A stretch of 64,000 bases of DNA from Alphaproteobacteria bacterium (GCA_017528205.1 JAFXPE010000032.1:145986-209985); one strand, 5' to 3'; counted from the first letter of the stretch, positions 15,124-58,696 are shown. The notes: generated from the letters alone by a model not told the origin. Numbers and translations: made by a program.

Positions 15124-15151
15124 TTGCAATTTAGCGTTGATACGCTAATAT
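15124..15151 (+). promoter_or_regulatory. sigma70-like promoter (TTGCAA-N16-TAATAT) of leader RNA copy 1
   Basis: -35/-10-like hexamers conserved in identical arrangement upstream of copy 2 at 58202..58229. Confidence 0.55.
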
Positions 15152-15155
15152 AAGT

Positions 15156-15308
15156 CCGTCGGCGAGAGGTCGTCGGCGGAGTGTAACGGCTCCTTATACT
15201 GTATTGACTCCTCTGCAATGGGGAGCCGGTTGAATATATTGAATAAACCGGACTGCTAGTATAACAGTCGTTAACTCCCCACCTTAAAGGAATTTAGGGT
15301 GGTTTTTT
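15156..15308 (+). ncRNA. structured leader/sRNA element copy 1 (unclassified), ending in an intrinsic terminator
   Basis: Conserved blocks shared with copy 2 (GAGAGGTCGT, GGGGAGCCGGTTGAATATA, ACCGGACTG, AACTCCCCACCTT.AAGGAATTT.GGGTGGTTTTT). The 5' hairpin 15156..15179 has compensatory changes between the copies. Terminator hairpin 15279..15302 plus T-run. Confidence 0.5.
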
Positions 15309-15340
15309 GTTGTGATATTAACAAAAGAGGAGTTACGAAA

Positions 15341-15568
15341 ATGAGAATAAAGAGTTGTTGTATGGATAAACAAACCATACAAGAAATCGGTCATCAACTA
15401 TGGCAAATGCGTCAAGAACGCAGAATGTATCTGCATACGGTATCTTTTCAAACCCGAATTCCCGAAAGAGTAATAGAAGGTATGGAAATCGGTAAGTTTA
15501 TTAAATATGCACCATTACGCTGTTTAATAGCGTTCTACGGTAAAAAGATGCGGATTGTTTTTGAATAA
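15341..15568 (+). CDS. small XRE-family helix-turn-helix protein (paralog 1)
   Basis: 76 aa; IGHQLWQMRQERRMYLHTVSFQTRIPERVIEGMEIG HTH core. Paralog of 58417..58644. Start 15341 preceded by an AGAGGAG SD; the ORF-track start 15299 lies inside the terminator. Confidence 0.7.
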   Translation: MRIKSCCMDKQTIQEIGHQLWQMRQERRMYLHTVSFQTRIPERVIEGMEIGKFIKYAPLRCLIAFYGKKMRIVFE

Positions 15569-15618: not shown

Positions 15619-17832
15619 TTAGCTCAAAGGAGCGTCCATTTCAAATCCGGCGCTGTCATCCTCTTCGGCGTTGTATTCAATGCCCAATTTGGCCAGCATA
15701 TCGTCATTAATATCTTCACGCTGTGCCACAATCCAATCCGGAACATTCGGGCAAGCAGGCAACTTCGCCAATTTGCTCATTCTTTTATCCAAATACCAAC
15801 GCGGAGAGTCGGCAATAATCGGGCGGTCGATATGGCTTTGCATCAACACCACTTGCTTTAACATCGGCAAACTCAACAGCTGTGTCGAGCTGATAACCGG
15901 AATGCCTTGCAACTGATAGTTAACGTTTTTCGCCAGCGGGTTAAAGTCTTTACCCAAGCTACCCTCTGTTCGTGAAAATGACGAAATACGCACGGTTTTG
16001 TTACCAATCATCTTAGAGAAACGTTGTGCCGTAACTTCGTTGTTTTGCGAAAGAATAACTTTGCAGGCGGTGGTAGAAATCACCGTTTCCAAATCATCTT
16101 TTCCGTATTTGCCGGAGATTTGGCCCAAGTCTTGTCCGATTAGCAAATAAGACACTTTTTGACCACGACCTACGGCCGGTCCGTCGATAATAGCTTTCAT
16201 CTTAGGCATTTGCGGAAACTCGTCGAGCACGAACAACGCAGGGAAAGGTCCCATTTTGCCGTCGGTACGGTTAACGTGATTCGGCGGATTGGAAATCAAA
16301 TAAGACGACATCAACTCAATAAAGGTAGAGCTGATAACGCCCAACGCACGCGCATCAACCTGGTTAACCGACAGATATACGGAAATCGGCTTCCATTCTC
16401 CGGTAACCGGATCTTTCATACCGCGCAAATCCTTAAACAACAAATCCGAAAAACTTGTCCGCGCTTTAACCGCTTGGTTCTTGAATACGTTAATGCCGGC
16501 AAATGCAGTAGAAAGAATGGAACCGCGCTCTTTATCCGGAGTGTTGCTCAAGGTGCTCAATTCCGTAATGCAACGCTGAGCATAACCATAATTACGGGCT
16601 TCCTTAATTGCTTCTTCAAGCATATCTTTAGTCGGGTCGGCCATGGCCGCCATCTGATCGCCTTCGTCCAAACGACGTTGAATTTCGTGAGCGGCGTTGA
16701 TTTGCGCCTCCGTAATCCATTCCATAATCATGGCAATGCAAGCCTCACGTCCCATCCAACGCGATGGCAGCAAATTCCACGTTCCGATAGGTAGATAATT
16801 TTCCATGGTCAGTGTGCCGTTTTTCAAATTTTGTAAAGCACGTTGAACTCCCGGATCACGCATATCCATATAATAACCTTCGAGAACTTCCTTATCTTTT
16901 TCATCAAGCTTGCCTTCATAAATGCGGCCGATAAAATAATCGTTGGCACGGGCACGCTCACATTTGGAAACCACAAATTGAATAAATCCGGTTAAGGCTG
17001 CACGACCGGTTTGTGACCAGTGCGGATCGGCGCCGCCTTTCGGATCTTCAACCAAAATGTTACACATGGAATCCACATACATATCGCGGTCCGGACCTTG
17101 TTCCGGAATACAGCTCGGCGACAGCGGGTTCCAACTCGGATAATAAATGCCTTCACTCGGATTATCTTCTGCACCCCAGTTAATGATAAACACCGGCCCC
17201 ACTTTGGCGCGAGCACCCGAAGTGTTATAACAAAGCTCCGGTTTCGGGTCGTTAATCACCAAACTGAGCTTGTCGGAATTGAAAATCGTCGGAATCACCA
17301 CGCCGGCGGTTTTACCGGTACCAGGAGGTGCGCAGCACAGCGTGGCCAAGGTTTCTTTTAACATTAAAAATTTGCCGTCAAACTTGCCGACAACCTGGCA
17401 GAAACCGTCAAAACCCAACAGCGACATTTTCTTAATGTCGCGCAAATCGGCAATTTTGGCCTGACCTTGATAGTTAACCTGAAACTTATACGGACTGAAA
17501 ATGGCGCTGACAATCAAACCGAGCGGAATGGTAATAAACGGCAACAGCGGAATCCACAAACTGAGCGAAAACCCGCCTTGGTGATTCCACAGCTGATGTC
17601 CCCATTTTCCATACATGGTAAACAAGTGATTAGGATCTCTGGCAATAAGCGCCAAAAACTTCTGAATGACATCGGTTGAGGACTTAGAAACGCCGTGTCC
17701 CACCAAATAAGAAAGCGGTAGGGCGAAAATAAATAAAATTATGCTTAACACAAGGCAAATCAAGAAAGTTACCGTCATCCACCTGACGGCTTTGTCATAT
17801 TCTTTCCATTCTTCACCGCGATCGTTTGCCAT
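15619..17832 (-). CDS. type IV secretion/conjugation coupling ATPase, VirD4/TraG/DotL family
   Basis: Two N-terminal TM helices, Walker A LCCAPPGTGKTAGVVIPT, Walker B ALFVLDEFPQMP, conserved IGQDLGQI..GK region, acidic C-terminal tail; 737 aa. Confidence 0.8.
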   Translation of the reverse strand: MANDRGEEWKEYDKAVRWMTVTFLICLVLSIILFIFALPLSYLVGHGVSKSSTDVIQKFLALIARDPNHLFTMYGKWGHQLWNHQGGFSLSLWIPLLPFITIPLGLIVSAIFSPYKFQVNYQGQAKIADLRDIKKMSLLGFDGFCQVVGKFDGKFLMLKETLATLCCAPPGTGKTAGVVIPTIFNSDKLSLVINDPKPELCYNTSGARAKVGPVFIINWGAEDNPSEGIYYPSWNPLSPSCIPEQGPDRDMYVDSMCNILVEDPKGGADPHWSQTGRAALTGFIQFVVSKCERARANDYFIGRIYEGKLDEKDKEVLEGYYMDMRDPGVQRALQNLKNGTLTMENYLPIGTWNLLPSRWMGREACIAMIMEWITEAQINAAHEIQRRLDEGDQMAAMADPTKDMLEEAIKEARNYGYAQRCITELSTLSNTPDKERGSILSTAFAGINVFKNQAVKARTSFSDLLFKDLRGMKDPVTGEWKPISVYLSVNQVDARALGVISSTFIELMSSYLISNPPNHVNRTDGKMGPFPALFVLDEFPQMPKMKAIIDGPAVGRGQKVSYLLIGQDLGQISGKYGKDDLETVISTTACKVILSQNNEVTAQRFSKMIGNKTVRISSFSRTEGSLGKDFNPLAKNVNYQLQGIPVISSTQLLSLPMLKQVVLMQSHIDRPIIADSPRWYLDKRMSKLAKLPACPNVPDWIVAQREDINDDMLAKLGIEYNAEEDDSAGFEMDAPLS

Positions 17833-58201: not shown

Positions 58202-58229
58202 TTGCAATTTGCTGCAAATACTTTAATAT
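58202..58229 (+). promoter_or_regulatory. sigma70-like promoter (TTGCAA-N16-TAATAT) of leader RNA copy 2
   Basis: Same hexamers and spacing as copy 1. Confidence 0.55.
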
Positions 58230-58234
58230 TAACT

Positions 58235-58382
58235 CCGCAGACGAGAGGTCGTTTGCGGAGTTTCACAACTCCTCTCTTGAAATAACTCCTCTTAACGGGG
58301 AGCCGGTTGAATATACCGAATAGACCGGACTGACAAGAGCAGTTGTGAACTCCCCACCTTGAAGGAATTTGAGGTGGTTTTT
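58235..58382 (+). ncRNA. structured leader/sRNA element copy 2 (paralog of 15156..15308)
   Basis: Same conserved blocks; 5' hairpin 58235..58258 with compensatory substitutions relative to copy 1; terminator hairpin 58353..58376 plus T-run. Confidence 0.5.
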
Positions 58383-58416
58383 GTTTTTAAATTAACAAAA
58401 TCAGGAGTTCAAAACA

Positions 58417-58644
58417 ATGGGAAAATATGAATATTTTGTAGATAAAGAAACCCAAAAAGAAATCGGACACGAATTGTGGAAAATACGTCAGGAAAAACGC
58501 TTGTTGTTGCATCAGGTGCAAAGCAAAACGCATGTTCCAGAGCGGATTATTGATGGCATAGAAATCGGCCGTCATCTTAATTACGGAATGGTACGCAAAC
58601 TCATTAAATTTTACGGCAAGAATATGCTGGTGGTATTTGAATGA
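58417..58644 (+). CDS. small XRE-family helix-turn-helix protein (paralog 2)
   Basis: 75 aa; IGHELWKIRQEKRLLLHQVQSKTHVPERIIDGIEIG; AGGAG SD. Confidence 0.7.
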   Translation: MGKYEYFVDKETQKEIGHELWKIRQEKRLLLHQVQSKTHVPERIIDGIEIGRHLNYGMVRKLIKFYGKNMLVVFE

Positions 58645-58662
58645 AAAATGTCATATAACAAA

Positions 58663-58696
58663 AACGCCGCCCGAAAAGGCGGCGCTTTAATTTTTA
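58663..58696. terminator. bidirectional intrinsic terminator (HTH gene + / rplQ -)
   Basis: GCCGCC-cgaaaa-GGCGGC with flanking T/A runs. Confidence 0.7.

Follow-up and report, generated by a model that had tools for sequence, protein, structure and literature searches.

A riboswitch-like candidate leader RNA tied to small XRE-type HTH genes of uncultured ruminant-gut Alphaproteobacteria

The 64,000-nt window of Alphaproteobacteria DNA analyzed here (GCA_017528205.1 JAFXPE010000032.1:145986-209985; positions are counted from its first letter) carries twice, both times on the plus strand, a module made up in the same order of a promoter-like site, an RNA of about 150 nt, an intrinsic terminator and a gene for a 75-aa XRE-type helix-turn-helix (HTH) protein. 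Copy 1 spans 15124-15568 and copy 2 spans 58202-58644. Our favored explanation, which we regard as probable though well short of certain, is that the RNA is a new riboswitch-like cis-regulatory 5′ leader, dedicated to small XRE-type HTH genes, in which a leaky terminator is combined with sequestration of the Shine-Dalgarno sequence (SD). Such a leader probably controls the amount of the regulator through an early end to transcription and a hidden ribosome-binding site. The original prediction, made from the sequence alone, had taken the element for an undescribed structured RNA, either a cis-acting leader or attenuator or a module of a small RNA (sRNA) and its regulator, and this reading is supported by the lack of any Rfam match, by the homologs found, by their covariation and by their linkage to the HTH gene. 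The result is a well-supported new class of structured RNA from hitherto uncultured bacteria, absent from the curated libraries.

The module and its family

Homology between the two copies begins at the promoter and ends at the stop codon. Identity is 75.6% over the whole non-coding part and 78.5% over the RNA core, in line with the earlier estimate of 75-80%, while the open reading frames (ORFs) share 61.4% of their nucleotides and 54% of their amino acids. The other shared parts that had been read from the sequence were likewise recovered in both copies: the conserved blocks GAGAGGTCGT, GGGGAGCCGGTTGAATATA and ACCGGACTG, the hexamers TTGCAA-N16-TAATAT, a terminator hairpin with its T-run (detected by the terminator scan in each case), and an SD followed by an ORF for a 75-aa HTH protein. 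The parts of the module are the following.

15124-15151, plus strand: copy 1 promoter-like site, with -35 TTGCAA at 15124-15129, a 16-nt spacer and -10 TAATAT at 15146-15151 (from the sequence and its relatives)
About 15157-15308, plus strand: copy 1 non-coding stretch of about 150 nt
15279-15308, plus strand: copy 1 intrinsic terminator, a 10-bp hairpin at 15279-15302 and a U-tract at 15303-15308 (terminator scan)
15341-15568, plus strand: copy 1 gene for a 75-aa XRE-family HTH protein (ORF list, Pfam and profile)
58202-58229, plus strand: copy 2 promoter-like site, with TTGCAA at 58202-58207, a 16-nt spacer and TAATAT at 58224-58229 (from the alignment of the copies)
About 58235-58382, plus strand: copy 2 non-coding stretch of about 150 nt
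58354-58382, plus strand: copy 2 terminator, a hairpin at 58354-58377 and a U-tract at 58378-58382 (terminator scan)
58417-58644, plus strand: copy 2 gene for the paralogous 75-aa XRE-family HTH protein

The module is the top-ranked repeat family of the window, and the 19-mer GGGGAGCCGGTTGAATATA alone occurs exactly twice in it, against 0.01 occurrences expected by chance. No third copy was found in the window with covariance model R1; copy 2 scores 125 bits with this model, a figure that is no independent detection since copy 2 is among the training sequences. The promoter-like hexamers agree with the consensus at 8 of 12 positions and, because the promoter scan has a threshold of 9 of 12, are not listed by it. 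They rest on the reading of the sequence and on conservation, CTTGCW-N16/17-TAATAT being kept in all family members in an upstream alignment of 33 copies.

More than 37 distinct copies of the RNA were gathered from metagenome-assembled genomes (MAGs) and metagenomes of the ruminant gut. Among 5.8 billion proteins, the HTH protein of the window has only 6 clusters of close relatives, which come from rumen MAGs labeled Alphaproteobacteria (ruminal_MAG_381, RUG13901, RGIG3536 from goat rumen, RUG10918, RGIG7040 from sheep rumen, and RUG10838). In every locus retrieved through the protein, the RNA core lies about 110-140 nt upstream of the HTH gene. A metagenome scan with a degenerate pattern of the core added 26 further stretches, on JGI and whole-genome shotgun (WGS) metagenome contigs whose source environment is not stated in the scan output. 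Together, the protein-derived and pattern-derived loci give 33 distinct RNA variants. In all of them GGAGUU comes next and then an HTH-family ORF some 75 codons long, which is interrupted or truncated in 3 of the 33. The reverse test gave the same picture. A profile of 22 HTH proteins retrieved 87 clusters, nearly all of 72-92 aa, and each of 6 divergent homologs chosen by protein alone (P0066, P0085, P0053, P0021, P0086 and P0059) has the RNA directly upstream, with covariance-model scores of 74-137 bits.

The position of the RNA is constant: it sits in the 5′ untranslated region (UTR), on the strand of the HTH gene, in 33 of 33 pattern-derived and 6 of 6 protein-derived loci. Adjacency and orientation are absolute in more than 40 loci in unrelated genomic contexts, and the linkage to the HTH gene is complete in both search directions. 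The flanking genes vary by locus (MarC/VirD4, thioredoxin/L17, ATP synthase b/FBA, enolase, rpoA, the S10 operon, the S6 operon, lnt and others), and no conserved second gene was found near the module across the loci compared. Small convergent ORFs that follow the HTH gene in L001, L039 and L052 were considered as a conserved partner and are mutually unrelated. Since the flanks vary and the RNA-HTH linkage is complete, the unit consists of promoter, RNA, terminator and HTH gene. The RNA family is real and robust, and it is so far confined to uncultured ruminant-gut Alphaproteobacteria. Its strict linkage to the HTH gene and its multi-copy nature make it an easily testable system, to which ruminant metatranscriptomes, probably available in public, would contribute.

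None of the 4,227 covariance models of Rfam 15 matched the window at its gathering score in the Rfam scan that had been recommended for the element. Permissive scans of both copies (E<=10) returned only chance-level matches far below gathering; the best sub-threshold overlaps with the RNA were mir-8186 (20.9 bits against a required 80) and L10_leader (19.6 against 44). The literature searched holds no description of an XRE-associated RNA motif. A generic remark that HTH-XRE genes often neighbor candidate RNAs has been made for human microbiomes (PMC8040213), and a paper on 224 motifs (PMC5737381) contains nothing relevant.

Fold and covariation

Measured against dinucleotide shuffles, the minimum free energy (MFE) of copy 1 has a z-score of -6.35 and that of copy 2 a z-score of -7.0, with the same architecture in both, and RNAalifold returned a structure identical to that of the window copies from 10 and from 33 sequences. 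From the 5′ end, the consensus consists of P1, an 8-bp hairpin; P2a (GGAG/CUCC), which adjoins it; a one-base bulge; P2b (8 bp); an internal loop; and P3 (7 bp). P3 meets P4 (CUCCUC/GGGGAG) and P5 (6 bp) in a three-way junction. P5 is capped by GAAUAUAUUGAAUA, and there are 2 conserved single strands, ACUG on the 3′ side of P5 and CAGU on the 5′ side of the P2b 3′ strand. In the window these elements lie as follows.

15156-15179, plus strand: copy 1 P1, the 5′ hairpin (core 15158-15165 with 15170-15177, loop GAGG)
15178-15278, plus strand: copy 1 junction domain
15178-15182 with 15274-15278, plus strand: copy 1 P2a, GGAGU with ACUCC
15184-15191 with 15266-15273, plus strand: copy 1 P2b
15195-15201 with 15257-15264, plus strand: copy 1 P3
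15208-15213 with 15220-15225, plus strand: copy 1 P4, CUCCUC with GGGGAG
15226-15231 with 15246-15251, plus strand: copy 1 P5, with the invariant cap GAAUAUAUUGAAUA at 15232-15245
15252-15255 and 15265-15268, plus strand: copy 1 invariant ACUG and CAGU
58235-58353, plus strand: copy 2 structured RNA core, with P1 at 58235-58258
58257-58261 with 58349-58353, plus strand: copy 2 P2a, GGAGU with ACUCC
58297-58302, plus strand: copy 2 GGGGAG, the 3′ arm of P4
58303-58308 with 58323-58328, plus strand: copy 2 P5, with its loop at 58309-58322
58329-58332 and 58340-58343, plus strand: copy 2 ACUG and CAGU

The case for this fold is carried by covariation. In a MAFFT alignment of 33 sequences, 95.6% of the cells are paired, against 79.5% after shuffling (0 of 500 shuffles reach the observed value) and 33-48% when the partners are slid; the covariation score is 0.529 against 0.226, and 23 of the 39 pairs show double changes. 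A model-guided alignment of 37 sequences raises these figures to 98.7% paired cells (shuffled, 80.3%, again with 0 of 500 reaching it; slid partners, 32-46%), a score of 0.584 against 0.217, and double changes in 25 of 39 pairs. Covariation is found at nearly every position of P1, P2b, P3 and P5. Seven of the 8 pairs of P1 show double compensatory changes, with many G-U pairs, so that the compensatory changes noticed between the two copies in the 5′ hairpin hold across all 37 sequences; in P5 (CCGGTT/AACCGG in DNA letters) all 6 pairs covary. The frequency of G-U pairs places the structure on the RNA of the plus strand. When pairs of positions are ranked by mutual information, the top ones all belong to the predicted nested helices, and this search revealed no pseudoknot beyond them. 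Covarying stems together with invariant junction and loop nucleotides are a trait of the riboswitch type.

Two internal stems had been named in the original prediction, and they fared differently. CCGGTT/AACCGG is P5. GGGGAG/CTCCCC did not hold up, since GGGGAG pairs with the upstream CUCCUC to form P4; the proposed stem would cross the strongly covarying P2 and P3, which leaves it as an alternative conformer at most. A leader peptide was also considered, and the AUG or UUG near GGGGAG from which it might start is not conserved across members. L049, the most divergent member, is instructive about the P5 cap: it reads GAUAUA, an 11-nt insert and GAAUA, so both halves are conserved and the center is expandable. 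We infer from this that the cap halves form a non-canonical extension of P5, not an open loop.

Terminator, expression platform and the proposed switch

The terminator hairpin directly abuts the closing helix P2a. By sequence it is a G+C-rich hairpin followed by a U-run, as expected of intrinsic terminators. Across the family, the stems have 7-11 bp and energies of -10 to -16 kcal/mol and are followed by 4-7 U, and they are swapped wholesale between members (CCACCUU.., GACCG.., GACCAC.., CCUUGCC..) with pairing and U-run kept. Ensemble predictions for the terminated RNA give the hairpin a probability of about 0.98 in every member.

Downstream of it lies a second conserved feature, P6, a helix between the U-tract of the terminator (UUUUUGUU) and the A-rich AACAAAA immediately 5′ of the SD. 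Only read-through transcripts can form this helix.

15303-15312 with 15319-15328, plus strand: copy 1 P6, U-tract UUUUUUGUUG with UAACAAAAGA
15329-15334, plus strand: copy 1 SD GGAGUU, complementary to AACUCC at 15273-15278 (the proposed helix P7)
58354-58409, plus strand: copy 2 expression platform
58379-58385 with 58394-58400, plus strand: copy 2 P6
58404-58409, plus strand: copy 2 SD GGAGUU

Structure prediction finds P6 in 38 of 39 members, at a length of 5-10 bp, and the purine that interrupts its U-run always stands opposite its partner, as G-C in most members and as A-U in 6. Insertions of 40-70 nt that resemble miniature inverted-repeat transposable elements (MITEs) are confined, in L029, L034, L036, L044 and L046, to the loop of P6 and leave both of its arms unbroken. 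Once the terminator and P6 are closed, the AACUCC of the P2a 3′ strand adjoins the SD, GGAGUU, which is invariant in the HTH genes of the family (33 of 33); as a control, UU follows a GGAG-type SD in 12 of 73 (16%) other long ORFs of the same DNA. Pairing of AACUCC with GGAGUU (P7), enclosing the terminator and P6, is the MFE structure in about half of the members, both window copies included, and in the remaining full-length leaders the MFE structure keeps P2a and leaves the SD free. In constrained ensembles the two states differ by a mean of -1.05 +/- 2.2 kcal/mol, with 22 of 33 members within 2 kcal/mol. Judged by conservation and energetics, this pattern looks like the signature of a two-state platform.

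On the cis-regulatory reading, transcription would begin at the sigma-70-like promoter a few bases 5′ of P1, and the next 120 nt or so would fold into the closing helix P2a/P2b, the internal loop, P3 and the three-way junction of P3, P4 and P5, whose junction and loop nucleotides are almost invariant. The terminator abutting the closing helix probably ends most transcripts, leaving a stable RNA of about 150 nt. In transcripts that leak through, the U-tract would zip with the downstream A-tract into P6 and bring the SD beside AACUCC. Because the one AACUCC is shared, it can pair either with the 5′ GGAGU or with the SD. In the first case the junction domain would be closed, the SD free and the HTH protein translated; in the second, the domain would be open at its base, the SD hidden and the HTH gene off. 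Translation would be switched on by anything that stabilizes the junction, such as a conserved factor of the cell or a small ligand. A platform in which the U-tract of a terminator is recycled as the arm of a helix that delivers the SD to its sequestering strand would be unusual.

A more specific version, which we put forward tentatively and think less likely than not, is that a small molecule or second messenger binds the junction domain as its aptamer, that the leader thus founds a riboswitch class of its own, and that one signal is fanned through the many paralogous XRE factors of one genome. If true, the architecture would be two-tiered, with an RNA sensor and a protein output. It would be an orphan riboswitch with a transcription-factor family as its only output, a wiring that is rare, and it could bring to light a signal that matters to rumen life.

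Among known systems, the closest functional resemblance appears to be to translational ON riboswitches such as add, together with terminated riboswitch leaders that double as sRNAs. The add adenine riboswitch of Vibrio vulnificus is a translational ON switch with a three-way-junction aptamer. As in add-type switches, the stems covary around invariant junction and loop nucleotides, and the 3′ strand of the helix closing the junction domain is predicted to have the SD region as an alternative partner, so that a stabilized closed domain would free the SD. Unlike add, the leader resembles neither the purine family nor any other Rfam family in sequence or by covariance model; it has an extra 5′ hairpin, and a full intrinsic terminator between closing helix and SD; it invariably precedes a gene for a transcription factor; and it is present in several copies per genome. 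SreA and SreB of Listeria are terminated S-adenosylmethionine (SAM) riboswitch transcripts that also act in trans. They have no homology to the leader, which shares with them a terminator of its own that would yield a discrete short RNA with a possible second role. RNA thermometers such as ROSE and fourU mask the SD, and here too a short, weak helix would hide it in one of two states close in energy; in contrast to these, the large conserved junction domain with its invariant unpaired nucleotides exceeds what a thermometer needs, and ROSE gave no match in the Rfam scans. The leader belongs to none of the systems that we compared.

Several points weigh against the cis-regulatory reading, in whole or in part. 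As neither P2a nor P4 varies in sequence, covariation does not prove their pairing, plausible as it is, and P7 likewise rests on conservation and energetics without covariation. In L034 (E28), an AA-to-AU change is compensated in the P2a 5′ strand and uncompensated in the SD, and in L039 such a change is uncompensated in both. The predicted ensembles of the members contain no general antiterminator that competes with the terminator, so regulated termination is unsupported, and the terminator may simply set the 3′ end of an sRNA. One candidate antiterminator, in which the P4 loop and GGGGAG would pair with CUCCCC and the 5′ arm of the terminator, has extended complementarity only in one clade (E8, E19 and E25); since the terminator still has a probability of about 0.98 in the full RNA, this is no general feature. 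The thermodynamic predictions leave out co-transcriptional folding. Moreover, the associated gene is a regulator and gives no hint at a ligand.

Alternative readings and minor observations

The strongest competitor, which we nevertheless think rather unlikely, makes the terminated RNA of about 150 nt the main product, an sRNA that acts in trans or sequesters a protein, and casts the HTH gene as a partner dedicated to this RNA, perhaps a regulator of its transcription, and expressed only through low-level read-through. The strong terminator without a predicted antiterminator agrees with this, as does the build of the RNA, whose 5′ hairpin, 3′ hairpin and U-tail recall stable sRNAs. Its CUCC-rich segments could hit GGAG-type SDs, including the GGAGUU that is invariant on every HTH mRNA of the paralogous set, for AACUCC occurs twice per RNA; the P5 cap, 14 nt long, A/U-rich and invariant, might serve as a seed or a protein site; and there are several paralogous copies per genome, with 2 in 64 kb. 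The multi-copy, CUCC-rich element recalls the alphaproteobacterial alpha-r14/‘cuckoo’/CcsR family, multi-copy sRNAs with CCUCCUCCC anti-SD motifs in hairpin loops, located after a DUF1127 gene. The shared points are the host group, several copies per genome, C/U-rich CUCC motifs and co-transcription with a small protein gene. However, the CUCC segments of the leader are base-paired within the RNA, and the RNA precedes its HTH gene; the alpha-r families in Rfam gave no match. In addition, P6 and the juxtaposition of SD and AACUCC are kept only in the portion of the transcript made by read-through, a pattern difficult to account for were read-through without function, and adjacency and orientation of RNA and HTH gene are as strict as described above. 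In any case, the sRNA and the cis-leader readings are mutually compatible.

That RNA and protein form a cognate pair, with the HTH protein binding its own leader for autoregulation or as part of a toxin-antitoxin-like or defense-like module laid out like toxIN, strikes us as improbable. In the type III toxin-antitoxin system toxIN, a promoter is followed by tandem 36-nt RNA repeats, a terminator and an endoribonuclease. The order of parts is the same here, the terminator would similarly set the ratio of RNA to protein by read-through, and the modules are multi-copy and dispersed among housekeeping genes. The leader RNA, however, is a single unit with one complex fold and no repeat array, the protein is a plain 75-aa XRE domain without a nuclease or toxin domain or a meaningful PADLOC match, and no partner toxin gene is conserved nearby.

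The protein itself points the same way. In Pfam, the window proteins have sub-threshold matches only, to HTH_25 and HTH_3 (HTH_25, 19.4 bits against a gathering score of 24.6; E=9e-4 for copy 1), and many family members carry precomputed matches to PF01381, PF13560 or PF13413. The family profile matches solved XRE proteins (CT009, DdrOC, HigA, SinR and CylR2), and an AlphaFold (AF2) model of the copy 2 paralog from an 80-sequence alignment shows a four-helix XRE fold with a predicted local distance difference test (pLDDT) score of 89. Its nearest Foldseek neighbors, at a template modeling (TM) score of about 0.73, are BldD-DBD, the controller protein C.BclI and HipB; no fitting family was found in NCBIfam, PHROG or PADLOC. 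By these models, the HTH protein appears to be an ordinary small DNA-binding regulator. In favor of a cognate pair, two antitoxins, HipB and HigA, are among the nearest solved folds, as is the XRE-fold protein MBF1/EDF1. The MBF1/EDF1 proteins matched by Foldseek (eukaryotic and archaeal; 7o81_AU and 9f9s_CN) bind ribosomes and rRNA instead of DNA, which shows that contact with RNA is within the reach of such a fold. Against it, identity among the HTH proteins drops to about 20-30% across the family, recognition helix included, while the unpaired RNA positions stay fixed, and one locus, L004, joins a copy-1-like RNA to a copy-2-like HTH protein, which contradicts the idea that the RNA stems covary with the identity of the protein. 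Divergent proteins, a fixed RNA and this mixed locus argue, at the level of sequence, that the RNA is recognized by a factor common to all copies, a shared partner rather than its own HTH protein.

A feature of the DNA with no functional RNA (a duplicated arbitrary UTR, operator sites or a mobile repeat) can be dismissed, for although both window copies have short palindromes in their promoter spacers and MITE-like repeats exist in these genomes, compensatory changes are seen in more than 37 divergent copies, as are G-U pairs, and read on the opposite strand the latter would turn into A-C mismatches; the module has no flanking terminal repeats, its homology stopping at promoter and stop codon; and viral contigs, phage records and plasmid records held no match to the RNA. 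Covariation that includes G-U pairs excludes such DNA-level explanations, and the abundance of covarying homologs, for which the original prediction had asked, likewise refutes a recent duplication of an arbitrary 3′ UTR. The spacer palindromes (TTAGCGT-N4-ACGCTAA in copy 1, ATTTGC-T-GCAAAT in copy 2) were also rejected as operators, being unconserved in orthologous loci; L009 and L038, for instance, have near-identical HTH proteins and lack the copy 1 palindrome.

Some variant loci deserve mention. L004 (6001-6369; MarC-module-VirD4, orthologous to copy 1) has a copy-2-like HTH ORF of 122 aa that overlaps the 3′ end of virD4, its length apparently due to a frameshift or stop loss, behind its copy-1-like RNA. 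The arrangement is identical in L005 and L006, which makes three independent assemblies, and suggests recombination between paralogous modules. Ankyrin-repeat genes near L004 hint at a host-associated lifestyle. In L048 (2744-2871), the 5′ half of the leader comes from one paralog and the 3′ half from another, P2b and P3 are broken, and the score is 105 bits against 128 in L046; this is probably a chimeric metagenome assembly, and it could be a real recombinant. Behind intact leaders, the HTH ORFs of L017 (E13), L035 (E29) and L049 (4001-4183) are interrupted or truncated, at 17, 27 and 60 codons; pseudogenization, sequencing errors in homopolymers and programmed frameshifting are all possible causes.

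A separate MITE-like repeat of about 110-150 nt occurs on the minus strand of L024 (8278-8391, 8448-8561 and 9991-10106), with termini of the type GTCATRC... / ...GGCATGAC. The hairpin inside it, ACUCCCC-GCAAG-GGGGAGCCGG, is similar to P4-P5 of the leader, and the repeat gives weak R1 matches of 14-22 bits. The insertions between terminator and HTH ORF in L029, L034, L036, L044 and L046 are short elements related to it.

In the window itself, a gene for a VirD4/TraG-type coupling protein of type IV secretion (PF02534, E=5e-56; 15619-17832, minus strand) converges on copy 1. Its neighbor, a 496-aa ORF (17848-19338, minus strand), matched nothing in Pfam; the middle of this ORF is of low complexity and highly charged (DDDEDD, DRDRDKDRD). 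The HTH gene of copy 2 is separated from rplQ (L17), which converges on it, by a G+C-rich hairpin (58661-58688) that has a terminator score on both strands.

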